A stretch of 62,426 bases of DNA, counting the filler, from Dugesia japonica (Eukaryota): the NCBI GenBank assembly GCA_001938525.1. It is 6 parts of 6 records of this genome, joined end to end, with 100 filler letters (N's around TTAATTAATTAA, not from the genome) between each part and the next. Parts side by side here need not be neighbours in the genome. Positions count along the whole stretch, not along the records: positions 20,031 to 31,010 come from MQRL01202033.1; 5 more parts are not named here. The stretch is one strand, 5' to 3'. The notes beneath the pieces were generated by a model. The model ran no database searches and was not told the origin of the DNA. It saw nothing but the letters and a program-made list of their open reading frames with translations. The translations under genes were made by a program, and so were the position numbers. This document shows, piece by piece, positions 10,121-62,366 of this stretch. How positions within the stretch are numbered: the stretch's first letter is position 1; each line of letters starts with the position of its first letter.

Positions 10121-10220
10121 NNNNNNNNNNNNNNNNNNNNNNNNNNNNNNNNNNNNNNNNNNNNTTAATTAATTAANNNNNNNNNNNNNNNNNNNNNNNN
10201 NNNNNNNNNNNNNNNNNNNN
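10121..10220. other. Artificial contig linker N44-TTAATTAATTAA-N44 (also at 19931-20030, 31011-31110, 41087-41186 and 50942-51041)
   Basis: An identical 100-nt block with a six-frame stop 12-mer occurs five times. Confidence 0.97.
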
Positions 10221-14043: not shown

Positions 14044-15891
14044 TAAGAAAAAATCCAACCCTATGATCACCTTTATCCCACCGCATTAGATGAGGCCTTC
14101 AGTAAACTACATCAATTTTCATAAATATAAAGAGTTTAGATTTCTCGAGAAAACTTCCCGGGTAACAATACTGCTCGTTAAACATTAATCGACGCAATTC
14201 GATTATTTCTGATAGACAGATCATTGCAATTCTCTCAGTTGTTCTTTATTGAACCTTAATAACAGCATCTTGGCATTCACTGGTGGATTCGCTTTCCTCC
14301 GATCACTCTCATCGAACACGAATCAAAGAATTTCAGTTTTGTTTTGTGGATTTGCTTCTCTCCAATTATTCTCATTACCTCCATTAAAGTATCTCGGTAC
14401 CTCAGTCATCTCATACAAAGGGAGCACGATTCATCCCAGTCGGGGCACTCAACATCATTGGATTTTATATAATAAAATTTAAAAATTATGGCATTTGAAG
14501 ATGTACATATTTAAAATTTACTTTCGGGGTTTGTGTAGATAGCCTTGGATCGTTTCCACAATATTTTTGCTTGCTCCGATATAGGGTAATTCAATTAACT
14601 ATTTATTATCTTAACCAAGTTGAAGTAGGAAAAACTTTATTCAAATTTAATTTTCGCAAAAATAATAAAAATTAAGCAGATACAAAAGTGTTGTTTTCTC
14701 TTCGGGTAGCTGGTTTTAATTGAGAATGTTGAGACGACAAAACCGGCTCCCGATTAGCCAACTAATGATACATAACTTTGTGGGAATCCGATTTCCCGAT
14801 TGGTGAAGTTGGTGTGCATTCCTCTCTTCCTAATTTTTAACAATTTTGGTGCACACCAAATTTTTGGACTAAACTTTATTTTTCAGTCACCTCGCGTGAC
14901 CTCTGAATCCTTTCAGTTATCTCCATGCGACTTCCTTGTCTGGTTTAAGGTGAATCACGGATGCTGTTATTAAATTTGAACTTAATTCACCCTAACCAGA
15001 CAATGAATGGACCAAATTATATCTCTAATTAAGAGATAATTAAATAATATTAAACGCTGAAAAACGTTATTATAGTAATGAAATTGGGTCGCAGAGACCC
15101 TTTTAATAACTTATTGTATATTATTTTTATTATTTAATTTTTATTGTCTTTCTTTGCATCTACTTTTCATTTTTTACCACCGAAATTGGGTCTTCTACGC
15201 CCGATTTTCATTTTCTCGATAGTTTCAAAATCCGTCATAATGATTATAATAATAATAATTACATAATAATANNNNNNNNNNNNNNNNNNNNNNNNNNNNN
15301 NNNNNTGATAATATTTTCGGGTCCAGCTCATCAATTTTGTGTCTACTCTTCATTATTTTACACATTTTACTATTCTTTATTCCTTCGACAAAATTTGTGT
15401 TCTAGCCAAACAATTATAATTAAAATTATTATTCTTATTATTGTNNNNNNNNNNNNNNNNNNNNNNNNNNNNNNNNNNNNNNNNNNNNNNNNNNNNNNNN
15501 NNNNNNNNNNNNNNNNNNNNNNNNNNNNNNNNNNNNNNNNNNNNNNNNNNNNNNNNNNNNNNNNNNNNNNNNNNNNNNNNNNNNNNNNNNNNNNNNNNNN
15601 NNNNNNNNNNNNCTATAGTTAATTGAATTATTTTACCAATCCCTCTGATTTTTTTATTACTCGAATAATTTCTTAAATCGTGAATGTCTTCATATTTGAT
15701 TGAAATATCATTTAATCAATTCAAAATTCCTCAATTATACTAAAGTGTAAATTTCAGGAAGCATTGCATTAAATAAAATTATTATAAGCATAATTCATGA
15801 AAAGAGGACCACTAGAAATCAATATCAAATCCTTCAATTTACGAAAATTTCAGTATAAAACTAACTGTAAATTCACAACATTTAATAAATA

Positions 15892-17415
15892 ATGCATATC
15901 TTTTTATTGACAGTTTTACTGGTAATATATCAGTTAAATGAAATACAAACAATTGTGATGACAAACCAAATCAATGACGTTTTGAAATCCACCGTCAATA
16001 ACATTTACCAAAATAAAGATGTGAATAACATTGACAACTATAGAAATAATAATTCCAGCCTGAATAGTAATTCCGAAAATTTCAATTCCACAAACAATAA
16101 TAATTTCAAAAGTTCCAATTCAACAAACAATATTAATTCCAGAATGGTCAATTCAACAGACAATAATTATTCCAAAAATATAAATTCAACAGATAATCTT
16201 AATTCTAAAATAGTCAATCCAATTGACAATAATAATTCCAAAAGTGTAAATTTAACAGACAATATTAATTCCAAAATAGTCAATTCAAGAAGCAATATTG
16301 ATTTCAAAAGTTCCAATTCAACAGATAATCTTAATTCTAAAATAGTTAATTCAATTGATAATAATAATTCCAAAAGTTTAAATTTAACCAACAATATTAA
16401 TTCCAAAATTTACAATTCAACAGATAATATTAATTCCATAATGTTCAATTCAACAGACAATATATATTCCAAAAATATAAATTCAACAGGTAATAATAAT
16501 TCTAAAATAGTCAATTCAATTGAAAATAATAATTCAAAAAGTGTAAATTTAACAAACAATATTGATTCCAAAAGTTCTAATACAACAGATAATATTAAAT
16601 CTAAAATAGTCAATCCAATTGACAATAATAATTCCAAAAGTGTAAATTTAACAAACAATAATTATTCCAAAATAGTCAATTCAACAGATAATATTAATTC
16701 TAAAAAAGTCAATTCAATTGACAATAATAATTCCAAAAGTTCCAATTCAACAAACAATATTAATTCCAAAATTTACAATTCGACAGATAATATTAATTCC
16801 AGAATGGTCAATTCAACAGACAAGAATTATTCCAAAAATATAAATTCAACAGATAATCTTAATTCTAAAATAGTTAATTCAATTGATAATAATAATTCCA
16901 AAAGTGTAAATTTAACAAACAATATTGATTCCAAAAGTTCTAATACAACAGATAATATTAATTCTAATTCCAAAAATCCTTATTCCATGGACAATAATAA
17001 TACTAAAAACTTAAATTCTAAAGTCAAAGTTAATTGCACAAATTTCAATTTCAAAGACAATAAAACTTCTATTTCAAAACACGACGATAATTCTAAAAAT
17101 TTGAATTCGAAACACAAAAATAATTTCTTAAATAGCACTTCTAAGGATAAAGATAATTCCAAAGACAAAAATACCTCAAAAATCCTTAATTCTATCAACA
17201 ATATTATGACTAAAAATATCAAGTCTTTAAGCAATTATAATTCCAAAAATCTTAAATCCAAAGATAAAAAGAATTCCAAAAACCTAAATTCCAAGGGCAT
17301 TAATAATACTAAAATTTTCAAGTCTATAGTTAAAAATAGGTGTTTCAATTTCAAACACGACAATAATTACAAGTTCCTGTATTTGGCAATCAAATTGAAA
17401 TTAAACCAAAAATAA
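15892..17415 (+). CDS. Secreted Asn/Ser-rich tandem-repeat (mucin-like) glycoprotein, 507 aa, intronless
   Basis: Hydrophobic signal peptide (MHIFLLTVLLVIYQL); roughly 27 copies of an 11-aa unit (NSKIVNSTDNI-like) with many NxS/T sequons; basic C-terminus; TATAAAA about 37 nt upstream and AATAAA at the stop. The frame stays open for 1.5 kb in very AT-rich DNA. Confidence 0.75.
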   Translation: MHIFLLTVLLVIYQLNEIQTIVMTNQINDVLKSTVNNIYQNKDVNNIDNYRNNNSSLNSNSENFNSTNNNNFKSSNSTNNINSRMVNSTDNNYSKNINSTDNLNSKIVNPIDNNNSKSVNLTDNINSKIVNSRSNIDFKSSNSTDNLNSKIVNSIDNNNSKSLNLTNNINSKIYNSTDNINSIMFNSTDNIYSKNINSTGNNNSKIVNSIENNNSKSVNLTNNIDSKSSNTTDNIKSKIVNPIDNNNSKSVNLTNNNYSKIVNSTDNINSKKVNSIDNNNSKSSNSTNNINSKIYNSTDNINSRMVNSTDKNYSKNINSTDNLNSKIVNSIDNNNSKSVNLTNNIDSKSSNTTDNINSNSKNPYSMDNNNTKNLNSKVKVNCTNFNFKDNKTSISKHDDNSKNLNSKHKNNFLNSTSKDKDNSKDKNTSKILNSINNIMTKNIKSLSNYNSKNLKSKDKKNSKNLNSKGINNTKIFKSIVKNRCFNFKHDNNYKFLYLAIKLKLNQK

Positions 17416-19930: not shown

Positions 19931-20030
19931 NNNNNNNNNNNNNNNNNNNNNNNNNNNNNNNNNNNNNNNNNNNNTTAATTAATTAANNNNNNNNNNNNNN
20001 NNNNNNNNNNNNNNNNNNNNNNNNNNNNNN

Positions 20031-20639
20031 ATATATATATATATATATTTATAAACTATATAGTCGATCTATTTAAAAAAATCAAAGATTTACTTTTACA
20101 AAATATGTAATTCAATACTAGATTTCTTTACAAAACTTTATTTTATACACGTCAAGATTTTTAACATTTTTGTTGTGGATTTCAGAAGGTCCAAACAATT
20201 TTCGGTTTTAAAAGAAAAGGTGATCAACTAAAATTTTGATCACTATTTATACAATTACGACATGTATGATTTTAATACAAAATTTTACAAGATAAATAAA
20301 TTTACATAAATATTTCCGTTGGTTACATAAAATATCATAAAAATTCCATTATTACAGATAAATTATATATAAAAATTTTCCATTAGTTATTTATTAATCG
20401 ATAATTTCAGTAATTTACAAATTATATATAATTGTTTGTTGATTATTCATGACTTCAATAAATAATTGAGTTGATTGATTGCTTGAATTGATTGATTGAC
20501 TGAGTTGGTTGATTGGGATGCTGGACGTTCTGATTGTTATTTGCTCATACTTGTTTTGTATATTACTTGTGTATATTGTGTATGTATGTGAATGTCAAAT
20601 AGCTTTAACTTTGTTAATTGATTTTAATTTTTTTCAACA
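20031..20639 (-). repeat. LTR-like repeat in minus orientation (inverted copy of 30244-31010), truncated at an (AT)n tract at the contig end
   Basis: 20031-20370 is the exact reverse complement of 30671-31010. 20467-20636 matches 30246-30416 with few substitutions. The minus strand begins TGTTGA at 20639. Confidence 0.85.
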
Positions 20640-20641
20640 TA

Positions 20642-20734
20642 ATGAAGAAAATATTATACAAACAGCATGGTGGCTTCCTCGCTGCATTACTACCTATTGC
20701 ATTGGCTGCATTAGGTCTAACAAATTTTGCATAG
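20642..20734 (+). pseudogene. C-terminal part of a Polinton/adintovirus pX-like virion peptide
   Basis: MKKILYKQHGGFLAALLPIALAALGLTNFA*: basic stretch, then a GG|F adenain-type cleavage site and a hydrophobic tail. Lies directly upstream of a Polinton integrase. Confidence 0.6.
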
Positions 20735-20821
20735 GCATTATATATATAATTTGATATAAGCAATGGAAAATTTAGAATAATTAACCTATAATTAATCTAC
20801 AATTTGCATCAAATTGTTGTA

Positions 20822-21618
20822 ATGGACAAAACCGAGATAATGTGGACAGATCCAAAAAATCCAGCAGGATTCAAAGGAGTGGGAAAGTTATGGAAAGCAA
20901 CACAAAATTCGAAAGAACAAGGCACAAAAGTGACTATTTGGTCAACTAGCGTATAGTCGAAACAAACCAATGTTCAAAAGATCTCCAACAAGAGCGTATA
21001 AAACATTTGGTATTGACGATTTATGACAAATAGATTTGATGGAAATGATACCTTATTAAAAAATTAATAGAGGTTACAAGTACATTTTAACATGTATCGA
21101 CGTGTTTAGCTGATTTTAATCGAATATTGAAAGATGCATTGAAAAAGTACTTTGTGCATACTGGAAATAAAACATGGATACATGTGTTACCAAAAATAAT
21201 TCATAGCTGTAATCATACAAGTCATAATGGATTAAATGGAGCCAGACCTGTAGATGTATCATCTGAAAATTCAAAGAAATTATGGTTATTGAAACAAAAA
21301 CCGAATGTAATTAAAAAACCAAAATATAAAGTTGGTGATCATTCACCATTCATCAAGAATTTTGATAGTAATTGGAGTGATGAAGTGTTTCAAATATCGA
21401 AAATCAATACCAAACAGAATCNNNNNATGTATGTGATTAAAGACTATGAAGATAATATCATTCAAGGAAAATTCTATGAACAAGAATTACAAGTAATTCC
21501 ACCACCAATAGTATTTAGAATAGAAAGGATTATAAAATCAAAGAAAACAAAAGATGATAAACAATTATATGTAAAATGGCATGGATACGAAAAACTTACT
21601 TGGATATCAACATCTTAA
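20822..21618 (+). pseudogene. Polinton/Maverick retroviral-like integrase with C-terminal chromodomain, internally deleted
   Basis: WTDPKNPAGFKGVGKLWK; DDL*QIDLMEM..NRGYKYILTCIDVFS joined directly to NRILKDAL..YF..TGNKTWIHVLPKII; KPKYKVGD; NWSDEVFQI; IQGKFYEQELQ; chromodomain FRIERIIK..LYVKWHGY..TWI. Confidence 0.85.
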
Positions 21619-21644
21619 ATAGTAAATTCAACAAAGAAGAAAAT

Positions 21645-21710
21645 ATGAGTAAAACGAATAATTTCTATACACTATTACCGAGTAATAGTTGTCCACTTAT
21701 TTATCCGGAG
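21645..21710 (+). pseudogene. N-terminal 22 codons of a Polinton minor capsid (penton) protein, fused in frame to the glycoprotein
   Basis: MSKTNNFYTLLPSNSCPLIYPE resembles the FYxTLPSNS..xxxPxN start of Polinton pentons and follows the integrase. Confidence 0.55.
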
Positions 21711-23365
21711 AGTATGCAGAGAGAATGTATTGTTAAATATTCGGAGGAAGTGTTCTATTGTGATAGTTCTCAGGTAGTACCGTTAGTACCAAGTTGGTCA
21801 CCAGAAGCAGTAAATATATCAGCTGAAGATATCGATAAAACGTTTGAAAACAAAGAAATAATAGTACGCGAAAAAGTTAAATTAGAAGCGAGAATTGGAG
21901 TGAAAGTAAGACAATCAAAAGATATAGTCGGATGGGAATCCGGAGGAGGATGGTGCAAATGAGGTAAATACTATCTATGGGGGAAAAAAGGAGTGATTTA
22001 GTAGTAAGACGGATGTATTATGTAGAATTGAGGAAATTTAAAGCTTCATTCGATTCAGTTACCGGAAAAATGATGACTCATCCTTTTTGCAATTTACAAA
22101 ATTTTAATTGTGATACCGGAAAATCTATGTTAACATACAAAGTAAACCCACATGAATGTGCCCTGACAAAACTGAAAACGTTAAAAATGTATTCCATCTC
22201 GGGAAAAAGATTCGCTGAGAACTTGGCAAAAGAAACAAGAGATCAAAAGAGAGAATTAACAGTAATCCAAGAGAAAGCAACTCCTACAATATTTGTAACG
22301 AATTCTTCTAAAGATCTTATGAGATTTATTGACAAAGGAGAAACAATCAAATGTGCAGTAGCAGTAAAGAAAACCAACTATAACGGATTATATATATCTA
22401 CTGAACTTATTAAAGCCTCTAAAGATCAAGTAGATAAATTAGACATCAAACTAGCTTCATATTTTAATAATAAACTTGATTTTGCATACCATAATTTAAT
22501 ATATCAAATGGAAAAATTATATGATGAAACAATATCAAGAGATTGTAAAGTGAATAGAGAATTACTGCGCACAAAAATGGCATTAGCTTCCACTAATCTA
22601 GATTTAATGACTCCACTATTGTTCGAGGAAACGGGAACTTTTAGGAGAATCATGGGTGAAGCATTATTAACCTTTAAATGTAAAATAGCAAAGGTTACGT
22701 TACCAGATCACCCAAAATGTACAAATGAATTGCCGGTAATACATAACAATAAAAAGGTTTTCTTATTACCTATGACACGAATTTTAACTGATGAAAATTA
22801 TAAACCAAAGGTAATCAACAAGTGTAGTAATGTTATAGATCCACTATACAAAATAAATGATGATATTTGGATCACAGCCTCAGATCGTAAAACAGCGAAA
22901 AAGCCTGCTATATTAGAAATGACGGAACTACAGAGAAAAATGATATTTGATAGACAAGACAATATGGAAAATGCTGGTATATATACTCAAGAAGATATAG
23001 AGAAAGCCAGAAAACATGTCTTGTTTCCTATAGAAAGAGAAAAGATAATATCAATTATGATTGACAGAATTAATAAAGGAAGCCAAGGAGATGATATTAA
23101 TTTTGAGTCGCTATTGCATGTAAATCACTACAAAAGAGCCATGCAAGGTTTTATTGATAAATTTTTAGGCAAAGCACAAGCAATCGGTGATATATTTTCG
23201 TTTTTTCTAATAATATACTATGTATCAATTTTATTAAAATTAGCCTGCCATCAATTAATATCATTAAAACAATTACATTCAGTATTTGGCGCTACACGAA
23301 AATTAGCAGCATGCATATGTACATTTATTGCAAAACATTTAATCATGCAAAAANNACCACGATAA
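21711..23365 (+). pseudogene. env: Class III (herpesvirus gB / chuvirus-like) envelope glycoprotein, N-terminally truncated
   Basis: Cys pattern and motifs recalled from chuvirus-type glycoproteins: YFNNKLDF, central helix LYDETISRDCKVNRELL, GEALLTFKC, KCTNELPV..LPMTRIL, CSNVIDPLYKI..W, GIYTQEDIE..HVLFPIER; C-terminal hydrophobic/TM segments. One stop and a frameshift near 21960. Confidence 0.8.
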
Positions 23366-23435
23366 AATCAGCAAACTAGAAAGACAAAATCAAACATACA
23401 CAATTGATCTATCGAACAGAGATGAGAATACATAA

Positions 23436-24257
23436 TTGAACAATTACAATAATAAACCTTATCAATCAGAAACCGATAAACTTAACGAATTAAAATCAAA
23501 CCTTGAAAATGAAAAAGTAATAAGATATCCTGCACCACAAAAATCACACAAGATATATGTAATAAATGGAGACACTCCTAGACCTACCATAATAATATCA
23601 ATACATGGATATAACATACCTTCATTAATAGACACTGAAGAAGCATGCTCAATAATTAAAGAGGTATTTCTCAACAAAAAACCACAAGAGAATCTCGATA
23701 CGAGACTGTCAGAGGAATTAAAATCATTCACGGGTCACAAATTACCTATAAAAGGGATAATAGACTGCAATATTACTATAGAAAATGAAAATATACAACA
23801 ATCATTCCGAGTTGTAGATCAAGGGGTACAAGATTGCATTTTGGGAATGGATTTATTATCAAAATTGACAGGATACGTTATAGATTTACAAAATAATAAA
23901 TTATCAAAATCAGCGCCCGTAAATAATGAAAAAGCAAATAACGATTTATATCTGAAGTCCAACGCAAAAATAGAATATTCATGCAAATGTATAATGCCTG
24001 TAAAATTAGGGTTCCGTAGTGAAAATATTTATTTTTTCGAACCAAATAATCAATTAGAGAAAAAATTCAATATATCAATAGTACCCAGATGTTTTGTACC
24101 AAATGAGGGAAACATGCCCATAAGAATTGCTAATTATAATAATCAAGACGTTAATCTTCTTCCAGGTATGAAATTAGGAAACCTTTATGTAAAAAACGAG
24201 GATTGTGAAATAAACAAAATTACAATTAATGATAGTAAAAGAAACACTAATCTATGA
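23436..24257 (+). pseudogene. Retroviral-type aspartic protease plus dUTPase-like linker domain
   Basis: SLIDTEEACSII (DTG decayed to DTE), LKSFTGHKLPIKG, DCILGMDLL; then IRIANYNNQDVNLLPGMKLG. Confidence 0.8.
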
Positions 24258-25760
24258 CAAAATCATACCTAAGTAAACAAAGTTTTACGATAAAACCAAA
24301 ATAACCAATAGTAATCTAACAGCGCGCCAACGACAAAAATTACAAGCAGTAATAGATAAATTTGAAGATGTTTAAGCAAAACATGAATTTCATATGGATG
24401 AAGCAGATTTTATACAACATGCTATTGACACAGGTAATGCTAAACCAATTAAACAAAGGCCATATGTGGTACCATATAAATTGAGAGAAGAAGTTGAGCG
24501 ACAAAGAAAAGAATTAAAAGACAATGGAATTATAGTACAAAGCTTCTCTCCATGGGCATCACCAGTAGTACCAGTAAAGAAAAAAGATGGAGAAATCAGA
24601 ATGTGTGTAGACTATAGAAAATTAAATGAAGTCACCAAGAAAGATACTCACCCTTTCCCGAAAATACAGGAGCAATTCAATAAATTAAGTAAAGCATTAT
24701 GGTTTGCAATATTCGATGTCAACATAGGCTTTTATGGTCTGAAAGTATTGTTACAAGATAGATAAAAAACTGCATTCGTAACAAAAGACGGTTTATACGA
24801 ATTTACAAGAATGCCATTTGGTTTAATGAACGCAACAGCTTCTTTCCAGAGATTAATGAACACAGTATTGATAGATGTGGAACATGTAATAGTGTATATG
24901 GACGATATTCTGATCGCATCAGAATCATTTGAGCAACATTTGATAAACAAAGAAAACATGATGTCCAGATTACAAAAGGCAATTATAAAACTGAAACCAA
25001 CAAAATGTAAATGGGCGGAGGAACAGGTATTATTTTTAGGTCATATTGTCTCATCAAAGGTTTTGCAACCAAATCCAGAGAAGAAAGACGCAGTAAAAAA
25101 ATTTCCAATACCAAAAGCAGTACAACAGCTACAAAGTTATAACGGATTAGTTGGTTACTATCGTCGATTTATAAAAGATTTTGCCAAAATATCTGCTCCA
25201 TTAGTAGAATTAACAAAAGGATTAAAAACAAAAGGAGAAAGTAAGAATGTGATGATCACCGAAAAAATTGATGAAAGCTCATCAAAATTATAAAAATTAT
25301 GGAGAAATAATCAACAGAAAGCCTTCGAAATGTTAAAAGAAAAATTAATAACCGCATCGTTATTGAGATATCCAGATTTTGGCAAACCATTTATAATCAT
25401 GACAGATGCAAGTGGATATGTCGTTGGAGCAGTTCTCGGACAAGAGGAAGAGAAAAATAAAGATTATGTAATCGCATACGCAAGTAAAATGTTAAAAGGA
25501 GCAGAAACTAGATACTCGACAATTGAAAAGGAGTGCTATGCAATAATATACGGATTGAAACAATTTCGACCATTCATTTATGGAACAGAAGTCCCTATAT
25601 GAACGGATAATAACCCACTTGAAGGCATATGGAAAAAGAAGGATACATCCAGCTGGATACTAAAATGAGCTATGAAAATCCAAGATATGAATATAAAAAT
25701 TAAATATAAACCTGGAAGAGCTAACATAATGCTGATGCATTATCGAGAATTCCTAATATA
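24258..25760 (+). pseudogene. pol: Ty3/gypsy reverse transcriptase and RNase H
   Basis: SPWASPVVPV, RMCVDYRKLN, MPFGLMNA, YMDDIL, FLGHIV, GYYRRFI; RH TDASGYVVGAVL, EKECYAI, ADALSR. Several stops and frameshifts. Confidence 0.95.
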
Positions 25761-25775
25761 AAAGAAGTAGAAACA

Positions 25776-27050
25776 ATGGAACTAATGGCTATAATAACCG
25801 AAGGTATAAACGATAAANCTTTCTCAGATGAACAAAGAAAGGATAAAATCATCAAATCAATACGAAATAATCTCAATGAAAATCCAAAATATAAAATATA
25901 CAAGGATCTACTTGTGTATGATAATATGGAAAACTATTTATGGGTTGTCCCTGATCCATTAAAGCAGAAGTTACTTCTCCAATATCACGATGGTGCTCTT
26001 GGTGGGCATTTGTCAAGTAGAAAAAAGCATCTAGAATTTTACAAAAATATTATTGGCAAAACTTAAAGTAAGATGTAAAACAGTGGTGTAAAACTTGTTC
26101 AATATGCGCAACCAGAAAGAACACTGGAACCAAAACAAAAGTACCACTTCATCCAATGCCAGTACCAAGTTCACCAATTCAAATATGTGCTATGGATTTC
26201 TTAAGCAAACTACTCACTACAATAAAAGGCAATAAACATATTTGGGTATTTAGCCATTACTTTACAAAATGGGCTGAAGCATTCCCCACCAAAGATGAAT
26301 TAGCCGAAACAGTTGCAAAACTATTAGTGGAAAAGATTGTTTTTAAATACGGAGCACCCAAAAAATTACTATCAGACAGAGATAAAAATTTCTTAAGTAA
26401 AAAAGTTAAGAGTCAACGAAATGTTTAATATTCAAAAAATAAATACTTCAGCGTATCACCCACAGACAGACGGTCTTGTGGAAAGATTTAATAGTATACT
26501 ATGCAACAGACTATCAGTATTTGTCAACAAAAATCAAAATGATTGGGATTTATTTATCAAACCAGCACTATTTGCTCACAATACAACAGAAAACGAAGCA
26601 ACCGGATATTCACCATTCTACTTAATGTACCTGAGAGAAAATCACAATTCGGTAGACATTACATTTGAGCCTATTGTATCACAATACATGGACAATCCGG
26701 ATTATGTCACGAAAATGCAGGAAGGATTACAGAAAGTGTATAAACAAGCTGGGTTGAGAGTAAAATTCAAACAAGAACAATACAAAGATTATTATGACAA
26801 AAATGCGAAACCACGCCAATTTAAAGTTGGAGATAAAGTGCGAATAAAGACTCCAAATTCTAAAAAGGTTCAACAAAAAAACTGGCCAGACCATTCAAAG
26901 GACCTTTTGAAGTAGTGAAAGTAATGGATACAAACCTACAAGTGATAAAGAACAAAAATGATGATCTTTCAGGAGTTGCAGTCAACAAGTGCAAATTAGC
27001 AGAAACAGAACCAATAACTTCAAAATCACACAAATATAATCTCAGATCAC
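25776..27050 (+). pseudogene. pol: Ty3/gypsy integrase
   Basis: HHCC (YHDGALGGHL..CKTCSIC), AMDF, LLSD, AYHPQTDGLVERFN, GPF motif and terminal YNLRS. Confidence 0.93.
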
Positions 27051-27061
27051 AATCACAAAAT

Positions 27062-28856
27062 TCATTACTGATCATGTCACTAATATTATTATCGATTATA
27101 ACAAGTTGTTCAGCAGATTTCACGTATTTATCACCTAGAAAAAACTCTTGGCCTACGGTAGAAATAGGTATATATTCACATAAATTTACATTCGAAATCC
27201 CTTCACATAAGACTTTCTATGGACCTACATTATCAGGAGAAAATAGAATTATTACAAAATAAAACCCTAATACTAACAGTTATATTGACAGACAGTGTTA
27301 ATGACATAAAAATAGAAATTCAAAATGTCCCAGATGTATTAGGAGTTGAGTTTATATATTACGACAGATTACCAATACCCTTTCTCGCATTTACAAAAAT
27401 AAGAGGTCACTCTAGAATAGACAATACCTCTTTGTTAAATAATATATCATTCTTGAAATATTCCATCTTGGCACCAGAAGATATAGACTCCATGTCAATG
27501 TTTGTAGATATTAAAACCTTACCAGATCACTACATGCTCACAGAAATAATCGAGATCAAAATTCAGAACTTCAGAGGGGAAACATTATTGAACAAAAGAG
27601 TATGCCCCAGAGAGCGAATCAAACACAACTATAAAGACACAATTGGATACGACGAGAAATTAATCCTCGGTAAGGAAGATGCATACCCAATTATCATACA
27701 AACCGGACATATGCTATATGGAAAAATATTGATTGGCTATGACTTGGGAAAGAAATTGGCCAGTCTTCATATGGATCAAAGACATATTATTGAATATAGA
27801 GATCTTGATGAAGAAAAATGGCATAAGAAACTAGTATCGAAACCTAATACAGCCAAACACCGGATAAGTACAATTTTCGAAGCAATATTGAAACCCATAA
27901 AATATTAACCTCGAATAAGGGATTTAATTTGGTCAATGAACCATACAATAACATTCACTACAAACAACAGAATTGAATGGATACGACAGGCGTATATCTA
28001 CCTTAAAGAAACGAATCAATGGGACGACACTATAAAACCAACTAAGGACTACAATTTAGATCCAAAAATGGATGTCTTAGAACCTATAACTTCTATACCA
28101 CCACGAGAAGAAATATTCCCTATGGCAGTCTATTGGCCCATAATATTAAAAGAAATTGACAAAAGTAAAATAGATATTGTCAAATCTGGGGAATCAACTC
28201 AAGCTAATATAAACCATCCAATTATAAATAAAAAGACTAAGCGATTAAATTATAATAGCGTTGATCTTGATGACGAATCTGAAACTGAAGACAATGTGTC
28301 ATCACCAAAAATATGGAAAGAGAATACTGAACCCAACACGCAGATAGAAGAAGCGGCACGCAATATCATACAAATAGATAGTGATTCTGATTTAGATGAT
28401 AGTGATGATGAATTAAATGAAAATAAAGATTCAAATTCAGACAATAATTATGAGAACCAAAGCGAAACTGAAGGACCAATATACAGAGAACAAACAAAAG
28501 AGCCACTACAGGAATTAACAACGGAGGAAGTCAGATTCTGTAAACAATATGTACCATATTATACAGATGATGAATCCAGTGAGGATGAACTTGGATTTGA
28601 CCCAGATATCGAAATACTAGATGTTAGAGAATCATCGATTGATATGTCAGACCTTGTGTACATTAACAAAAAAATGGATACCACTGTCACTATGAAAGAC
28701 ATGGCCAATGATGAGGCATATGTGACATTTGGTACTAAGAAAATAAAAATAAAACGAGTCAATGGACAATTTAAGTTTATAGTAGAAAATACCATGTATG
28801 ATAGCATGGCCTTAGAGGAAGAGGGACAAGAACTCTCGATATCAATTACAAAATGA
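27062..28856 (+). pseudogene. Post-integrase extension: signal peptide, unknown domain, DEDDh (REX4/ISG20-like) exonuclease-like domain, acidic tail
   Basis: LLIMSLILLSIITSCSA|DF is in frame with the IN end. From 27498: MFVDIK..IIEIKIQNFRGETLLNKRVCPRERI..GYDEKLI..LYGKILIGYDL..YRDL. ORFs 27219 and 27936 share a frame across one TAA. D/E-rich region at about 28260-28620. Confidence 0.6.
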
Positions 28857-28962
28857 AATTATAAAATACATAGTTGTATATTTGTGTATATATGTGTGTG
28901 TGTGTAAATGTATACAACTTTCATATCCTTTACTAGCTTCATTAATTATTTATTTTTAGAAA

Positions 28963-30200
28963 ATGGATCCCGAATCAACAGCTAGGAAAATTCATCTACA
29001 CAATAACTGTAAAATAATTTTACATGAAAAACACCGCGCCCTGAAATACCCATTAAATTACGGTTAAGATGACGTAGCCAAAATTATTTATTACCTATCC
29101 GAAGACGCTGAATGCCCATTTGTTACGAATACCCAGAACTGCCACGAATTTTGGAATGTGGCCATTATTTCTGTCTTTATTATATATTAAAAGTCTTTCT
29201 TCTTTTCAACTTACGTCTAGTCCCCTGCCCAATCTGTCGTTCCTGAAAAATAGATGCTTTTCATCCTAAACGAGTTTCTTTCCTAAACATGTCACCCTTT
29301 AAAGTTGGACAAAAACTCAATATGTTGTTAACCTTCAAAGACCCCTTCAACAACTGCACAAGAATTGCTCATCGCCTACCCTTATATTATCAAGAGGATA
29401 TTCCTGAATTTAGCGACTTAGTTGGTAAATAAAATAATGTTACCATTCAAAGAGATGTCATTTCCATCAGCCAGATACAGAATGACCTCTGTACAGCCAG
29501 AGTGACCAATTAAACGAAAAGAGACAAAGACAACATGCAGCTCCACTTAAATAGTGAATTAAGAAGATTCAATAACCTAGTCAAAATTCAAGATCGATTT
29601 GAGTTCGTCAGGAAATTCCTTAACAGTAAAAACGTTTCACAATTCAACCTGTTTCATCACCGAAATATATTGTCACCTCGGTTATACTAACAAACTGGTC
29701 GGTACCATAACCTTTTTATCAATAAGGAACAACAGGAAAAAATACTCCAATTACCAATATTAAAATTGCCCTATGAACTCATAGTAGAAGTAAAGTCCAT
29801 AGAAACAGATATTGTAAAAACTTGTCATGCAGTTTTTTACACTGGACAAAGAATTACCTCTATTACTATCGATATCATTAGTTCTAAGGTACTTGGAGGT
29901 CTACCTAAATACGTGCCCTTTTTCAAACATTATGGAGACATTTTAAAGAAAGAAAAAAGAGAAAAACAAGAATTGAAAAGAATAGCGGACAACTGTAAAA
30001 ATTTGATAGGATAGAACCAAAGATTTACAACCTCACCAGACAAAGACAACCACTTGAAATATTTTCAAAACCTACATTCCCATACCCTACATTACCAAAT
30101 ATTGAGGAAGAATTTAACCCGTGTATTTTCAACGAACCCTGTGCGAATACAATTCCTTCTGGCTTACATGATATGGAATGCTCATTCTTAACCTTGTTTC
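28963..30200 (+). pseudogene. RNF10/MAG2-like C3HC4 RING E3 ubiquitin ligase carried by the retroelement
   Basis: With a 1-nt deletion at about 29117: HLHNNCKIIL..EDAECPICYEYPELPRILECGHYFCLYYILK..VPCPICRS..KVGQKLNMLL..LY*QTGRYHNLFIN..LPYELIVEVKSIE..YGDILKKEKREKQE. Collinear with RNF10 blocks outside the RING. Confidence 0.7.
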
Positions 30201-30208
30201 TTAAACAA

Positions 30209-30239
30209 GCTGCGGGTGCATCTTTTTTCGAAGGGGGAA
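30209..30239 (+). promoter_or_regulatory. Polypurine tract with preceding GC hairpin and T-run
   Basis: GCTGCGGGTGCATC-TTTTTT-CGAAGGGGGAA lies immediately before the LTR-like repeat. Confidence 0.75.
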
Positions 30240-30243
30240 CATT

Positions 30244-31010
30244 TTTTGAGGAAAATTAAAATCAATTAACAAAATTAAAGCTATTTGACATTCACATACA
30301 TACACAATATACACAAGTAATATAAAAAACAAGTATGAGNAAATAACAATCAGAACGTCCAGCATCCCAATCAACCAACTCAATCAATCAATCAATTCAA
30401 GCAATCAATCAACTCAAAATCAATAAACTTTATCTGATCCAATTTTACCGATTGAAGCTCTATTTGATTTGATTTGATTTTAACCAAATTGACTTTGTTA
30501 AATTGATTTATCATAAAATATGTTATTTGTAAAAAAAATTTTTTATATTATTTCATTTGTAGAATTTTATATTTAATTAAGAATATTTTATTTATAAAAT
30601 TGCATATCGCATAAACAATTATTTATTGAAGTCATGAATAATTATTTACCTAAATTATCAACAAACAATTATATATAATTTATCTGTAATAATGGAATTT
30701 TTATGATATTTTATGTAACCAACGGAAATATTTATGTAAATTTATTTATCTTGTAAAATTTTGTATTAAAATCATACATGTCGTAATTGTATAAATAGTG
30801 ATCAAAATTTTAGTTGATCACCTTTTCTTTTAAAACCGAAAATTGTTTGGACCTTCTGAAATCCACAACAAAAATGTTAAAAATCTTGACGTGTATAAAA
30901 TAAAGTTTTGTAAAGAAATCTAGTATTGAATTACATATTTTGTAAAAGTAAATCTTTGATTTTTTTAAATAGATCGACTATATAGTTTATAAATATATAT
31001 ATATATATAT
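30244..31010 (+). repeat. 3' LTR (partial; the contig breaks at an (AT)n tract)
   Basis: Follows the PPT. Start TTTTGAGG aligns with TGTTGAAA of the second copy. Contains (TCAA)n and a GTGATCAA..TTGATCAC hairpin. Confidence 0.75.
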
Positions 31011-31110
31011 NNNNNNNNNNNNNNNNNNNNNNNNNNNNNNNNNNNNNNNNNNNNTTAATTAATTAANNNNNNNNNNNNNNNNNNNNNNNNNNNNNNNNNN
31101 NNNNNNNNNN

Positions 31111-39745: not shown

Positions 39746-41186
39746 CCAAATCGGGAATGTTTTAGAAGTAGAGTAATTTTNNNNNNNNNNNNNNNNNNNN
39801 NNNNNNNNNNNNNNNNNNNNNNNNNNNNNNNNNNNNNNNNNNNNNNNNNNNNNNNNNNNNNNNNNNNNNNNNNNNNNGAAATTCCCATAAATTACACGTT
39901 AACAATTTTAATTAGTAAAAAATATATTTTATTTCAATTATTATCTTTTGTCGAATAAATCAATAAAATATTTAAAAGGATTAAAAAGACGAAATTAAAT
40001 TATATCAACAAATATGATTTCTTTTTTTATTACTATTTTCTGCGATTAAAAAATTATTTTTGTTAGATTTGAATTGACCAATCAATTCATAGCAGACTCC
40101 AGTAAAAATTGTTCACTACTATGTATTTTGTACAAAAATTATTTTCAATTGTAAAATGACAGAAAAGTTTTCGTATCTTGTACTTTCATTGAGATCTTAT
40201 TCAACCAATAAACTGGCAATTTGATTTTAAAATCTGATTCTCCTAAGATAATTTTGTTGTTACTTGTTAACTGAAATTTTCATTAGGCTTCCTGTGATAA
40301 TCATTTTACACATGAACATATTGATAAATTGGTTTCTTTTTATATTCCATAAAATTTCATAGATTATTTTTTTCTATTCATTTTGAGCAATATTAAAATT
40401 TATTAACTATATTACTATATTTTTAACAAATAATTCATTTACTGGATTTCGTAACAAAATACATCTTAACAGTATTTATTTAAGCTGTTAATAAAATTTC
40501 ATAAATGTGTTTGTGTGTGGTTCCTCATTAAACACGCAAGTTGCATTTGAGGTTGTTTACATACAAGCTCGAGAAAGTTATAACAGTTGTTTAAATAGTT
40601 TTTTTTTAATACATCAATTTTCAAAAATTACCGCTTGTTTTTTGTCTTTTTGATTTTTGTTTTCAAACTGAGGTTTACTTTATCATTTCATAACCAGATA
40701 TTATTATTAATATTATTATTATTATTGGTTTAATTTCCATTTCCATGGTAACATTTAATTTTATTCTATTTTGTGATTGCCACTATAATTAATCGTCAAT
40801 TATAGTACTTTTATCAGTGAATGAAACTTATAAAGAATGTAGTCATCTGAAGAAAAATACTACACAGTATCTCATTGTAAATAATGTAATTTGGTTAAAA
40901 TGCATTTTAACAAACAATGAAAGTCAGACGGATTGATCTTTTGTATTGAATTTAACGAATATTAAAAATTCGTTTTTGAATTGAAATGAATTGAATATTT
41001 TGTGAAATTTAATATTTTTTTGTTAAATTTCATTTCAAATTTTGAAATTCTTTAATAAATAAATGCATTTACCAGCCCAAAGCTTTNNNNNNNNNNNNNN
41101 NNNNNNNNNNNNNNNNNNNNNNNNNNNNNNTTAATTAATTAANNNNNNNNNNNNNNNNNNNNNNNNNNNNNNNNNNNNNNNNNNNN

Positions 41187-50670: not shown

Positions 50671-51041
50671 AAAAATGTTCAGAAAAATTTTCCCTAATTA
50701 CAATAATTATAAAAATTTTATAATTACAATTATTGTGAGAATAATTGTTGGACTTAGCCATTGATCGCATTTGAGATTTCATTAAAATAAAGAAAAAGCT
50801 TCGATCAAAATAATATGACTATGTAAAAAAAGTTCAAATTTTCGACAATAGTCTTATTCAGGAACATGTTGGCTTCTTGATATATTCAATACAATAGATC
50901 TTTTTTACTCAATTCTTTAAATTTTATCGAAATTTTATTGGNNNNNNNNNNNNNNNNNNNNNNNNNNNNNNNNNNNNNNNNNNNNTTAATTAATTAANNN
51001 NNNNNNNNNNNNNNNNNNNNNNNNNNNNNNNNNNNNNNNNN

Positions 51042-52337: not shown

Positions 52338-54450
52338 CAGAGGTCGCCAAAGTAGTCTATATAGACCCCTCAGGGGTCTATTTAATAAAAGTAGGGATCG
52401 ATCTGAGCCAAGAGGTTGAATGGGGGTCGAAGAAAACCCATTTTTAATACGCAATTCAAACATACCTAACTGCATATGTAAAATTTGTGAATGCTTTTAT
52501 AATTGACTTAATATCAGTTTCTTGTGAGAAAATAAATTAATAAACGTATATTTATTCGAGTGAATAAAGTATTTACATACCAGCGCGCAGCGGTGCCAAC
52601 TCGGCACTTCTGTCTTATGAGTCATACACATATGCGCGTTGCTCCAAATGTCACGAGCGTTGATGTAAGAAGGTAAGCATTAAGAATATTGATTAGTATA
52701 GTATACAAACTTATTTTTTACTTATTTATAGAACCCTAATTAAAAAATGGCAGCTTCAGTTTCTAAAAAGAATTTCGGTAATATTCATTGGATTATTTGA
52801 AATTTGGATTTATTTGTTCATCGATAAATGAAACAGTTCTTATATGTCTTCTATGCGAAACAAAACATTTGGAAACGAGTATATGAAACCGTCAAAAATG
52901 AAAGATCATCTTAAAATGAAAGATCATCATCATCATTTTTATCATCACTCAGATAAAAATAAATATAGAACTTGAATTTTTCAAAAAACTTAAAGAACTA
53001 TAAAACGTTTTATGAAGCAGTCTACTGAAGGAGGATTAATAGATTCGTACAAGATTTCGCTTACGGTAGCAAAGAAAGGAAAACCACACACTCTCGCTGA
53101 AGAAATTGTTATACCTGCAATTTAAGACTACATTGAGGATGTAATGACAAAAGACTCCGTTAATGTTTTCAAGTCCTTGCCATTAAGCGCAAATTCTGTT
53201 AAACGGCGTATTGACGAAATCGCAGAAGAAATATAAAATACAGTAGTTTCCGAGCTAAAAAATTGAAAGTTCTCTATTCAACTTGATGAATCTGTTTTTG
53301 GCGTTTCAACTATTTTTATGGTGTACGTGAGATATTTCAGTAAAATAAAAAGACAAGTCATTGATGAACTTTTATTTGCTAAATATCTTGAAACTGATAG
53401 AAAAGGAGTAACCATTTTTAGATGTTTACAATAATATTTAAATAAATATGATATTCCGCTTCAAAATATAATAGCAGTAGCCACAGATGGCGCATCTGCT
53501 ATGGTAGGGCGTTACCGAGGTTTTGCTACATTTCTCAAAATAAAATTGCCCGGTATACGTACTATTTATTGTGTGTTGCATAGAAACAACTTAGTGGCAA
53601 AATATCTGAGTCCAGAGTTACATAAAGCTTGTATTAAGTGTATCAATCAAATTAAAGCCCAACCTCTTAAATCAAGATTGTTTTCCAAACTCTGTGAGGA
53701 AAACGACAAGGTATTTAACCAATTACTTCTGCACACCGAAGTTATATGGTTGTCTAGACGTGTATGCTTGCCATTGCTTGTTAAGTTATTTGACTTCACG
53801 ATAGAATTTCTCAGTGAAATAAATCCTGTTCTGTGTGATGAACTCCAAAACAATAAAAACCATATTTTATATTTAGCGGAATTATTTGAAAAATTAAATG
53901 CCGTCCAAACGAAGCTGTAAGAAAAAGATGTAACAATAATTCAAGCTTGGACAATACTGTTAGGATTCCAAGTAAAATTAAATTTATTTAGATCTTTATT
54001 GCTATGTAAGGATTATCAGTATTTTTCAAACCTGCGACATTTAGAAATAAAAGAAGAAGACTTAAATATATATACAAGTCATCTTGAAAAATTAAGAGAC
54101 CATTTTAAACTGCGATTTGTTGATTTGGAAAACATTTACATCCCTGAATGGATTATTGCATCATTTTCCGCTCAAATTGAAAACCTAGATACCAACCTGC
54201 AAGATGCGTTTGCTGATTTAATATAATGCAAAAATCTGTAAAACTTTTCGAAATACCTGAGCCATTTATGCTGGCATTTCCAAGTTCCTATACGGTTAAA
54301 GCCGGTTTCAGTCACGTAAATTCAATCTTAAATAAGTTCAGAAATAAATTAAATCTGGAGTTTCGAGGAGATTTAAGATTAAAATTGACAAATTTTGAAC
54401 CCAATATAGTGAACTTTGCAAAGAAACACCAGCCACACCCATCTCATTGA
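52338..54450 (+). mobile_element. hAT Buster/Charlie-type transposon, decayed; transposase about 52747-54450
   Basis: TIR CAGAGGTCGCCAAAGT; ATAGACCCC..GGGGTCTAT palindrome; KPHTLAEE, LPLSANSVKRRI, SIQLDES, ATDGASAMVG, CVLH, LLHTEVIWLSR, FPSSY, RGDLRLKL and HPSH*. Right TIR not seen. Confidence 0.9.
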
Positions 54451-56974: not shown

Positions 56975-58156
56975 TCATAAACAATTTGAAGTATTATTCT
57001 GTAAGTTGCCTTGAATGAATTCTTGTAAGGAGATATCATATAATAATGCATTTCTTTGTAAAACTTCAACACAAGGTCCTAATAAACGCTCAAAACTAGA
57101 TCTCTCCAATATCCCAATCACAGATTTTTCCAAACAGACGACAGTTGCAGCTCGTGGTCGATTTGTCATCAATGAAAGCTCGCCAAAATATTGACCCTTT
57201 TCTAAAATAACTATTTGTTTTCTTGTATTTCCACTATCCACATATACTCCAACTTTCCCTCTTTCAATGAAATACATATGCTTTCCAACATCTCCTTGAT
57301 GGATAATGATAGAATCTTTTTCATATGTTTTCATATGAATAGCATCTGCAATATTTATCTTTTCATCATTAGTTAATGAATCAAAAAGAGGTACTGATGA
57401 TATAAAATTGACATATGTTAATCTTTTTTCATGTGCCTTTAGTATCACAATACTTTTAAACGTTTTCCTATTCATATACCAAAGGATTCCAGCAGTTCTT
57501 GCAATAACTGTTGCTGATCTTGGTGAATTATATAATAAAGAAAGTTCACCGAAAGATCCTTGATTGTTATACGTATTGATATGTTCTAAAGCATTGTATT
57601 TATTTTTAATGTAAACATCAAATATTCCCGATTGAATTACATAGAAATGATCACCAGGATCTCCTTGTTGAATAATAATATCATCAGCTTTCACTATTAA
57701 GATATTCATAGCGATAATTACATCATGAATTTCGTCATCAGCAAGTGTTTTGAAAATCGTTATTTTTGAAATAAGCCGTTTTAAGGTCTCTATTTCTGAT
57801 GACGTTTTAACATTTGTTTGGACAATTTCTCCGGAATTGTATATCTGGAAATCGTACGGATTCCAGCTTTCTGAAGAGATAGCGAATCGGCGTCTATTTG
57901 TTTTTGGCTCAAATTCAATTTCTTCTGAACTATCAATGCTCGATCTATTTTTCGAAATTGAAGTGTCCAGTTTTCTATCAAAAGCCACTGATTTTGAATT
58001 ATCTGTATTTCGATTTTCAAATAAATTATGGAAATAATTTGCCGAAAATTCTAATAGATTTGTCGGTTTGTTTTTTAATGCGTCCAATGTAAAATCTATT
58101 AATAATTCTCTAATTTCTAAATTTAATGGAAGATTTTTACAGTCCACAAATGACAT
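56975..58156 (-). CDS. PRKAR2: cAMP-dependent protein kinase regulatory subunit (RII-like), intronless, 393 aa from ATG 58156
   Basis: RIIa-type D/D domain (ELLIDFTLDALKNKPTNLLEFSANYF), inhibitor site RRFAISSE, two CNB domains (QGDPGDHFYVI..FGELSLLYNSPRSATV; YFGELSLMTNRPRAATV) and FERLLGPC. Confidence 0.92.
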   Translation of the reverse strand: MSFVDCKNLPLNLEIRELLIDFTLDALKNKPTNLLEFSANYFHNLFENRNTDNSKSVAFDRKLDTSISKNRSSIDSSEEIEFEPKTNRRRFAISSESWNPYDFQIYNSGEIVQTNVKTSSEIETLKRLISKITIFKTLADDEIHDVIIAMNILIVKADDIIIQQGDPGDHFYVIQSGIFDVYIKNKYNALEHINTYNNQGSFGELSLLYNSPRSATVIARTAGILWYMNRKTFKSIVILKAHEKRLTYVNFISSVPLFDSLTNDEKINIADAIHMKTYEKDSIIIHQGDVGKHMYFIERGKVGVYVDSGNTRKQIVILEKGQYFGELSLMTNRPRAATVVCLEKSVIGILERSSFERLLGPCVEVLQRNALLYDISLQEFIQGNLQNNTSNCL

Positions 58157-58930
58157 TAAACTATCGATTTTCAAATTGATTTCCAAAAATTTTATTTAAA
58201 AAATCAAATAATTGAAAAACAGTTATTATTCATTATATTCCCATTGATAACGTTTGGGTTATCTATACAAATTAATGCATTAAAAATAAATATTCCGCGA
58301 AAACATTGATTTATTGCATAAGAAACGCAACATATACTAGATGTGCATTTTCTAAACATTTTCATATAAAAACAATAGGTACAAGGAATATATAAGATGC
58401 GCATTAACGATTGGAAAATACGATATTTGCTTCAATAGTTTCATTAAAGATCAGATGAAATGTAAAAATTTGTTTTAACAACCAAATTAGTTAGAAAAGC
58501 ATAATTTCGATTTGGAAATTGAAATTATTTTGATGATAATCATTAAAATTAACATTTGAACTTAATTATTTTACGAAAAGGAGAATTATTATCGAATTTA
58601 TTAGTTCAATATTTTCAACACAATTTTCCATAAAACTTATTTATCACAATAATTTCAATTCTTGAGAATAGTTTTCAAACTTTTTATCTACTTTCTGCTT
58701 GAAATTTTCCACCATTTCCTATCATTCAATGAATATTTAAACAAATTTGTCTTAAAATTAAGTTAAATTAAAAAGCAATTTGTTAAAATAAACTACTTAA
58801 TTAAAAAATCACCAAACTCACAATTTTACACTAATATTAAAAGCATCATTCAAAGAAATAATGGTTTTTTTTAATTATTTATGCTTAAAAAGTTTCATAC
58901 AAATAATTTACTATCCAAANNNTTTCAAAA

Positions 58931-60149: not shown

Positions 60150-62366
60150 AAAACTTATGGAGAGTTGTGAGATTTTGAATTTAACTAACATGGCGATAAA
60201 CGCATCATTGGATTTGCTAAAAGAATTTTCCAAATTGGGGATGATGTCAAAATTTTATCATGAAGACAACAAAATTTTGTGATCTATACAAAATAAAGAA
60301 ATGCTTTAGAAATTTGGTTGCAAAGAGCTAATAATGAATAGTTTCAATGACATAAAGATTAAACATAAGATAAAATCCAGAAAAATAGAAAAAGTAGAAG
60401 ACGCATTTGAAGCAATAAAAGAGTGGGAATACATAAAAGACNAAGTAAAAACTGAAGAAATAAATGTAGTTCGTAACTACAGAGATGCAGTTTGCAGAAG
60501 TCCAGAACAAAGAAATTTCAACACGAGTCGTAATGAAGGAATACAACAGAACAGAAAAAATGAAAGACGAGAAATCTCGTGTTGGACCTGTAACAAAATA
60601 AGTCGTGTAAGCAGAAATTGTCAAGAACAACACTTAAGAAGAGACTGTATCAAAGTTAGTTGCTCAAGATGCAACAAGAAAGGTCACCACACATAGAACT
60701 GTTACACAAATATGAACAGACAGCATCTGATGAATGGATTCAAACGACAAACAAATTTGCTGCGTTTAATCAAATGAAGCTATCGTTTGCGTTTGATATG
60801 TTAATGAGACGAGATGCGAAAGAATTATGGGTGGAGAAAAAATGGAAAATGCAAAGAAGGTATTATTTTGACGAACGAGGTCTGCGAAAAATGGTTTTGT
60901 GAATCCTTTGTAATTTCAGAGACACTGGTAGATAAAATAACACTTTTGTCAAAGATCAAACAAAACCCAACTGAAAGTATCGTAATTTTGAGTTAAGAGT
61001 AAGAAAAATAGTAAACAAATTTCTTGCGAGTTAATAAACTCTAGATGAAATTGCAACAATATTTCTAATTAATGGTGTAAAAAGCGAAAAATTAAAAGAA
61101 TCCTTTGTTCTTCAACCAGAACTTACTGATATTCAAAGACGAGAATTAGCTTACATATATTCTGTTAATGTGGTAAAGTGACGAAAGATGATTATCAGTC
61201 AAAGTTTTCAAAAATGCATCCACGAATGAATACTCTTAACGATCCAAGTCAAGAAATTGGCTAATTGTTTTCAAAGAGAATCAGTATTATGAAAGTGAAA
61301 TTCAGACCCAAAGACGCGTCCAAAACAATAGTTTTTTTCAATACTCTATGAACAATATATATAGCCAATAAGCTTTATTGTAAAGCCAAAGGAAAGAATC
61401 CTCCGTGCGAAGAAGTTTTTGCACAGGGAGTATATTTCTGCTGTGGAGATACAAGACATAGAAGAATGAATTGTTCATTAAAAGATAAATGTTTAATATG
61501 TGGAAAAGAAGGTCATAATTTTCGAGATTGCGCATTAATTCGAATAAGAAATTCTTCATTTCCAGATATTATGTATTGCAGAAAAATATGTTATCTTACA
61601 ATGGTGAACAAATTGAGTATATACACGATGTTTCTTTTGACGATGATGATAAAAAAACGATAAATAACAGAGAAAATACTCCATGATGAAAGATTAATGT
61701 TTGATGGTAAGATGTTTTTAGAAGAGATATGGGAAAGAATGGAGTTTAATGCGTTACAATGAATATGATATTGAAATGTTGTGGGATTCAGGAGCAGCAA
61801 TATTAGTCATAAGTGCGGATGTGTTGAGAAGAATTGGATAACTTAATCTATCGACGTCACACATGGTTCTAGCAGGAGTGTTTTCAAAAAAAGGAGAAAA
61901 ATATATCGGAAAAACTAAACTGAAGTTACAATGGTATTGAAAGCTAAAAGATAAAGAATTAGTAATTGTTAAAAATATTTTTTCAAAGTTTATCAGAGGT
62001 ATTGATATGAAAATCACTGAAGTTGATTTTATTAACTCAAACGATAGAAAGTTATTTACCGATAATACAGAAAAAGGGAAAAATGACTTTAATACTTCAT
62101 ATAATGTAAGTGACGAAGTAATAGAAATGATAGAAACTTACAAAGATATATTCATGACATCAAAATTTGATCTTGGATATACAAAACTGATGCAACATCA
62201 TATTGAAACGACAGGACCTCCAATAATGATAAACTCGAGAAGACAGACAATGCACTTGGAAAATAAAATAGATGAATTGTTAGACAATCTTAGAAAATCA
62301 AATATTACAAGAAGTTGCAGAAGTCCGTGGAATTCCCCATTGGTAATTGTACCAGTTAGAAAATAG
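60150..62366 (+). mobile_element. Nested or decayed Ty3/gypsy fragments: two gag remnants, protease and RT start
   Basis: CWTCNK..C and CSRCNKKGH; CGDTRHRRMNC and CLICGKEGHNFRDC; LWDSGAA protease at about 61780; HHIETTGPPI..SPWNSPLVIV. Confidence 0.8.

Follow-up and report, generated by a model that had tools for sequence, protein, structure and literature searches.

A gypsy-type retroelement with a gB-type env carries a broken RNF10-like RING gene downstream of pol, and an intact homologue occurs in a diverged element

The window, by which we mean the whole stretch of DNA that was analysed (62,426 nucleotides, filler included), contains a broken gypsy-type retroelement in which the remains of a gene for a RING protein lie downstream of pol, and the nearest cellular proteins of this RING ORF are RNF10 rather than other RINGs, as judged by phmmer, by Atlas assignment, by control scores, and by a tree. 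The gene is neither a generic RING nor a one-off, the latter because a diverged second element, on a contig here called L001, carries an intact homologue behind its integrase. The reading that we favor, with a probability of about 0.72, is that a gene derived from RNF10 was captured from a host mRNA, came to lie behind pol, is expressed from a spliced RNA of its own, and would encode a compact ubiquitin ligase predicted to act on the 40S ribosomal subunit. Taken separately, the capture of an RNF10-derived accessory gene is very probable, expression by splicing is fairly probable on sequence grounds, and continued action of the element protein on ribosomes is a model-based prediction to which we give somewhat less than even odds.

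The ORF starts with an ATG at 28963, 3 nt behind a T-rich run that ends in AG (28959). Codons 1 to 51 share one frame, which switches just past the first RING Cys (29113), and the second frame continues to a stop at 30012 to 30014. Five of the 350 codons are in-frame stops, compared with about 24 expected in a random frame of equal composition, and the window copy is dead, being unable to make the protein. The sequence-only reading had placed a disrupted RING ORF between pol and the polypurine tract, from 28963 to 30200. Such an ORF exists, with that ATG, the change of frame, and the five stops; its start was placed correctly, but the matched ORF stops at 30014, from where the frame is open for about 58 codons further, and the tract does lie downstream, but an ORF of 1.8 kb separates the gene from pol. 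The four sequence blocks that had been quoted from the ORF are all present, in the order stated. Because the density of stops exceeds that in the rest of the element (8 in 2331 codons; P = 0.02, or 0.058 when frameshifts are counted), the sub-lineage of the window element may have lost the gene early, and the ORF looks like a dispensable accessory gene.

The ligand positions of the RING are C 29113, C 29121, C 29157, H 29163, C 29172, Tyr 29181, C 29226, and C 29235. In a six-frame reading of the window, a RING-like pattern turns up a single time, and none of 1000 shuffles of the 9.6-kb element contains it; Pfam C3HC4 matches the RING at E = 0.004, under the curated cut-off. Measured against an eight-ligand C3HC4 RING, the window copy falls short, with seven ligands and a frameshift after the first, whereas the best homologue, P0004, has all eight. 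The change of one ligand from Cys to Tyr, proposed earlier, was borne out at 29181, where all three compared homologs have Cys; of the two spacings proposed with it, that of 11 residues is correct and that of 13 was measured as 14. Structure predictions for the RING ORF were of low confidence (pLDDT 34 from a single sequence and 31 from two sequences).

When the RING ORF was compared with 1.84 billion protein representatives by phmmer, three matches were obtained at E ≤ 0.001 (P0004, P0005, and P0006); word-indexed protein searches with the ORF gave no match (0 of 1379 candidates and 0 of 14), and a scan for it in metagenome contigs gave none in 52 stretches. P0004 is the best match (E = 2e-8) and is aligned over nearly its full length, and P0005 and P0006 match the RING and about 40 residues. 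P0006 is assigned to RNF10 both by Atlas features (0.97, 228/256) and by structure, P0005 shares two blocks with P0006 (76 bits), and both look like cellular RNF10 types. The feature matches shown for P0004 contain no RNF10 name; of its five top rows, however, four are clusters that P0006 has as well, and the model that the Atlas gives for P0004 agrees with RNF10 clusters over residues 1 to 325, at TM values of 0.59 to 0.61. P0004 and the window ORF are co-linear over residues 13 to 341 of 350 (60 bits), a match that persists without the RING and the post-RING block (3 of 2000 shuffles). In shuffle tests of single blocks, the post-RING block gave 5 of 1000 against P0006 and 564 of 1000 against P0005. 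The block before the RING gave 39 of 1000 against P0004 and, against cellular RNF10, 527 of 1000 (P0006) and 971 of 1000, with hhalign E = 0.74. The C block of the window was not significant against cellular RNF10 directly (730 and 160 of 1000 shuffles) or, when taken alone, against P0004 (204 of 2000); the C block of P0004 matches the two cellular RNF10 types with z = 6.3 and 4.6 (0 and 1 of 1000 shuffles). Judged by these alignments, the link of the window ORF to RNF10 appears to run only through P0004 beyond the RING and about 40 residues. The RNF10 similarity that had been claimed past the RING therefore stands for the post-RING block and by way of P0004, and not for the N and C blocks in direct comparison with cellular RNF10.

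The notion that this is a generic RING resembling RNF10 by chance draws on the Pfam and PDB matches, which are of generic RING type only, and on the outer blocks, which are not significant directly. It is highly improbable and already largely refuted, given the phmmer matches, the Atlas assignment, the alignment with P0004, and the controls and tree that follow; similarity was not restricted to a generic RING, since it takes in the post-RING block and the P0004 alignment. A RING-motif scan of viral contigs supplied a control set of 44 loci, corresponding to 40 distinct proteins, which by motif we take to be mostly of large SNF2 type; no RNF10-like protein was among the 44 loci. None of the 40 proteins exceeds 19 bits when compared with the window ORF, as against 44 bits for the two RNF10 types and 60 for P0004. 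In a tree of 18 rows and 109 columns, which 14 of the 40 entered, the two element proteins and the two RNF10 types group with support of 89/88, and the element proteins are weakly sister to each other (80/69), with long branches that make the grouping unsure. The RNF10 affinity of the RING ORF thus appears well supported, in part transitively via P0004.

The element proteins are 20 to 28% identical to the cellular RNF10 types, and their lengths, 350 aa in the window and 445 aa in the homologue, compare with 576 to 611 aa for the cellular matches and 661 to 781 aa for Atlas RNF10 clusters. By sequence, the element protein would be a compact RNF10 derivative that does not reach the full RNF10 length of about 600 to 800 aa. 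The residue following the last RING Cys is Arg or Lys in both element proteins and Phe or Leu in both cellular ones; a basic residue at this position favors ubiquitin transfer.

The cluster of P0004 has three members, which differ at one or two residues and may not be independent. One of them is encoded on L001 by an open ORF of 445 codons with all eight ligands, separated by 250 nt from a gypsy integrase ORF upstream of it, and this integrase is 52% identical to that of the window. The proposal that the RING ORF is an accessory gene of the family is upheld by this diverged element, which is the sole independent second element found and whose contig lacks RT and env; scans of viral contigs with env, the left integrase, RT, P0004, and the L001 integrase gave no loci. 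An open frame at 28% identity would imply purifying selection, at least in the L001 lineage. The gene could also be a passenger, a retrocopy of RNF10 acquired by accident, once or twice, and without a role for the element. In favor of this are the window copy, which is dead and more decayed than pol, and the gene order, which differs between the elements: two accessory genes are common to both, with the RING after the exonuclease-like ORF in the window and before it in L001. A passenger is nevertheless very unlikely, because the L001 frame is fully open and its ligands are intact despite deep divergence from cellular RNF10 and from the window copy, and because both copies have the compact layout and the acceptor-like start. 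Elsewhere on L001 (14-1804), the integrase reads on through a stretch resembling a signal peptide and then a possible ectodomain to a hydrophobic segment; the lead-in is the same in the window integrase, and the sequence after it is different.

The contig that bears the window element spans 20031-31010 (Table 1). Spacers of 100 N with a central palindrome are placed at 10121-10220, 19931-20030, 31011-31110, 41087-41186, and 50942-51041, so the window consists of several contigs placed in a row, and neighbors across the spacers are not genomic neighbors. The element has the order protease, RT, RNase H, integrase, with a gB-type env upstream of pol. Its env is 39% identical to P0003, a gag-env-protease protein of 2099 aa with env ahead of the protease domains and an N-terminus that is gag-like by eye. 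The region after the protease is presumably dUTPase-like; Pfam gave no dUTPase match there. At about 21706 the env breaks off against the foreign fragment, which by its motifs we take to be Maverick-like, and gag is absent from the contig; in three of four runs, RNA reads from related copies depart from the window sequence at 21706-21709. No direct LTR pair was found in the contig, and the sequence past the purine tract recurs, inverted, at the left end. Because of where the right arm begins relative to the tract, and because the left arm begins with TG, the two arms can be read as two LTR starts, one of them inverted. Over their first 174 nt they show 6 mismatches and 1 N (6/173 sites), and they are identical over the outer 342 nt, which suggests a collapsed assembly there; the layout of the contig would be accounted for by a single inversion broken within env, or by a mis-join. 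Maverick terminal repeats were considered for the arms and dropped on the same two observations, and the whole contig was also considered as a Maverick/Polinton, for which no Pfam match to a protein-primed DNA polymerase, ATPase, or capsid was found in 14 ORFs and of which the interior is a retroelement. The ORF behind the integrase shares a block with the third ORF of L001 (window 27585-27806 and L001 4428-4649; 34% identity, tblastn E = 4e-4). The top two of the four PDB matches of this block are ISG20L2 (E = 0.17) and ISG20 (E = 0.22), and it weakly resembles ISG20-type exonucleases; by eye, the acidic catalytic motif looks lost. On other contigs of the window, an open frame of 406 codons with an RIIa and two cNMP domains (56975-58195, minus strand) constitutes an intronless gene resembling a PKA regulatory subunit, and an Asn/Ser-rich ORF of 508 codons (15889-17415, plus strand) consists of 33-nt repeats and has a hydrophobic N-terminus. 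Two plus-strand regions without a significant Pfam match are, by motifs, presumably a hAT-type transposase-like sequence (53435-54226) and another gypsy gag/pol-like sequence (60310-62366).

Table 1. Positions, in window coordinates, of the features of the element-bearing contig.
Feature	Position	Strand	Remark
Inverted copy of repeat arm	20031..20639	-	Minus strand begins with TG; probably the 5' LTR start, inverted
Foreign fragment, integrase with chromodomain	20640..21706	+	Pfam Chromo E = 8e-5; outside the retroelement
3' part of HSV-gB-type env (Monjiviricetes fusion glycoprotein), broken	21707..23365	+	PF24664 E = 1e-60
pol (protease, RT, RNase H, integrase; gypsy order), broken	23436..27030	+	
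Post-integrase ORF	27031..28856	+	Signal-peptide-like stretch (by eye), block common to the third ORF of L001, acidic tail
Acceptor-like site, AG 3 nt before ATG	28940..28959	+	Putative
RNF10-like ORF, broken	28963..30014	+	About 350 codons, 5 stops, 1 frameshift
C3HC4 RING, 7/8 zinc ligands	29113..29237	+	Frame change after first Cys; sixth ligand Tyr
Post-RING block common to RNF10-type proteins	29238..29350	+	hhalign E = 2e-4; SW z = 3.6 vs P0006, none vs P0005
C-terminal region ending Lys/Glu-rich	29679..30011	+	Co-linear with the C-terminal domain of P0004
Polypurine tract	30230..30239	+	
Repeat arm, 4 nt past the purine tract	30244..31010	+	Likely 3' LTR start, cut by the contig end

The acceptor-like site that had been claimed before the ATG, in which a run rich in T leads up to the AG at 28959, is present, and in L001 an AG directly precedes the ATG of the RING ORF. 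Under a rule set post hoc, which asks for a pyrimidine-rich, 20-nt AG-free zone and an acceptor at most 6 nt from the ATG, the window element has 1 qualifying ATG of 229 and L001 has 2 of 95, both RING ATGs included; with an AG-free zone of 22 nt, the window RING ATG fails. A second acceptor-like site on L001 (3740-3760), at the start of a 714-aa ORF, suggests several subgenomic RNAs. A word search of sequencing runs found seven that share 0.11 to 0.22 of words (six guessed to be DNA and one of unknown kind) and no RNA run. In RNA mapping of four of seven raw-read runs, a single joint was seen, inside env, and none at 28959/28960, where a depth below 1x is too low for a joint to be expected. 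The best RNA run has a depth of 0 to 1.5x over the RING ORF compared with about 1 to 9x over env-pol, so most of the transcribed relatives would lack the ORF or be less than 85% alike there; because none of its 737 reads is 99% alike to the window, the reads would come from other copies or strains. In run X9 (21864-27079), most first mates lie on the plus strand over env-pol, which would mean antisense RNA if the library is of a common stranded type. Genes of the ORF3 type in LTR elements are typically spliced, according to the sections of PMC5408684 that deal with them. Both RING acceptors keep to the reading frame of the ORF (offsets 3 and 0; 1 in 9 by chance), and flatworm spliced leaders end in AUG, as stated in the relevant part of PMC12582326; spliced-leader trans-splicing of the RING ORF may for both reasons be regarded as a live option.

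Accessory-gene capture by LTR elements is already known, ubiquitin-related domains in Burro included. Among cellular proteins, RNF10 and yeast Mag2 (parts of PMC11604940 and PMC12008924) have in common with the element gene the C3HC4 RING spacing and the post-RING block, and with P0004 also the C-terminal domain, and the P0004 model predicts a common core fold over about 300 residues. The element gene differs from them in being intronless, in lying inside a retroelement, and in being shorter, and the window copy is broken. Among mobile elements, the GAG-ENV-POL errantiviruses of Platyhelminthes with an HSV/gB-type env (Chary and Hayashi, sections of PMC13524379) have that env upstream of a gypsy pol, as here, and the main text of that paper has no occurrence of RING, RNF10, or accessory. 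In the nine flatworm rows of its supplement, no LTR is given for six Schmidtea elements, and extra 3' genes like the present ones could push the LTR past the 3-kb search used there. Burro (GYPSM1), a giant planarian gypsy element, has, in the account contained in excerpts of PMC6431247, an env between gag and protease that is kin to mononegavirus fusion proteins, together with accessory ORFs, and resembles the present element in having captured domains related to ubiquitin, apoptosis, and the ribosome (midasin). The domains given in those excerpts (AIR1, Smc, MATH, BIR, ankyrin, BCL2, SUMO-like, midasin, and dUTPase) are located in or before the polyprotein, and RNF10 is not named among them. 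The contig lacks the 5' half of the present element, where a giant ORF1 with MATH, BIR, BCL2, or ankyrin domains, as in Burro proper, would be sought. Since an env that precedes pol has been reported from Burro of planarians and from flatworm errantiviruses, we infer a planarian host for the window element. Bdelloid LTR retrotransposons likewise have host-like enzymes downstream of pol, in a non-env ORF3 that is typically spliced, DEDD exonucleases among them; in the portions of PMC5408684 concerned, these differ from the present gene in being a GDSL esterase and a DEDDy exonuclease, and neither RING nor ubiquitin, and hence no ubiquitin ligase, appears in those portions. No RNF10 or ribosome quality-control ligase in a retroelement was found among the papers that our literature searches listed, as judged mainly from titles and the opening of abstracts; the original Burro paper, its supplements, and Repbase entries could annotate the ORF.

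In the proposed course of events, reverse transcription of a host RNF10 mRNA would have brought the gene into the element, the long N-terminal, middle, and tail regions of RNF10 would have been lost, and selection would have maintained the gene while the two elements diverged. The RING would recruit a host E2, and the retained core would steer the protein to stalled 40S (uS3/uS5, as in RNF10), with the result that stalled subunits might be cleared from the very long polyprotein mRNA of the element or host translation might be tilted. RNF10 monoubiquitinates uS3, for which it needs its RING, and helps to free stalled 40S, as reported in a section of PMC11604940, and sustained RNF10 activity destroys 40S subunits, as reported in one of PMC12008924. 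A benefit of RNF10 to a virus is without precedent in the case of Sindbis virus, because its replication is unchanged by RNF10 loss in the part of bioRxiv 10.64898/2026.01.29.701737 that concerns it. One other possibility is that the protein, though of RNF10 descent, has been retargeted and acts as an E3 that marks or degrades a host defence protein, for example of a piRNA or RNA-decay pathway, and not the ribosome. We consider this rather unlikely, although the low identity to cellular RNF10, the reduced length, the change to a basic residue behind the last RING Cys, and the other ubiquitin and apoptosis domains of Burro elements (excerpts of PMC6431247) would all agree with it, because the whole RNF10 folded core, beyond the RING, is kept in the models and retargeting would not need it. 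A decoy, which would bind stalled 40S or an E2, block host RNF10, and shield ribosomes on element RNA from decay, is a further possibility, and truncated viral copies of host regulators are often dominant negatives, which counts in its favor. The element might by this means avoid the destruction of 40S that sustained RNF10 activity causes (a section of PMC12008924), but the intact homologue keeps all eight zinc ligands, which is partly against a decoy only, because one that sequesters E2 would keep them as well, and we regard a decoy as quite unlikely. An active, compact, 40S-directed ligase is favored because the ligands and the whole predicted core were kept and the long flanks dropped.

How RNF10 recognizes stalled 40S is stated as open in a section of PMC11604940, and no RNF10 chain was found among the 60 of 62 PDB matches shown; for these reasons the intact homologue, as a naturally trimmed RNF10 core, would be useful for structure and domain mapping. 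In a wider form of which we are more doubtful than of the ribosomal role itself, a retrovirus-like lineage of flatworms would have turned RNF10 into an accessory protein made from its own spliced, possibly trans-spliced, RNA, rewiring 40S quality control and traveling with an ISG20-like exonuclease fold as a surveillance cassette. If the protein is active, 40S surveillance would be a point of conflict between transposons and their hosts, and if the reading as a whole is true, a mobile element would encode a ribosome quality-control E3 of its own, a natural minimal RNF10.
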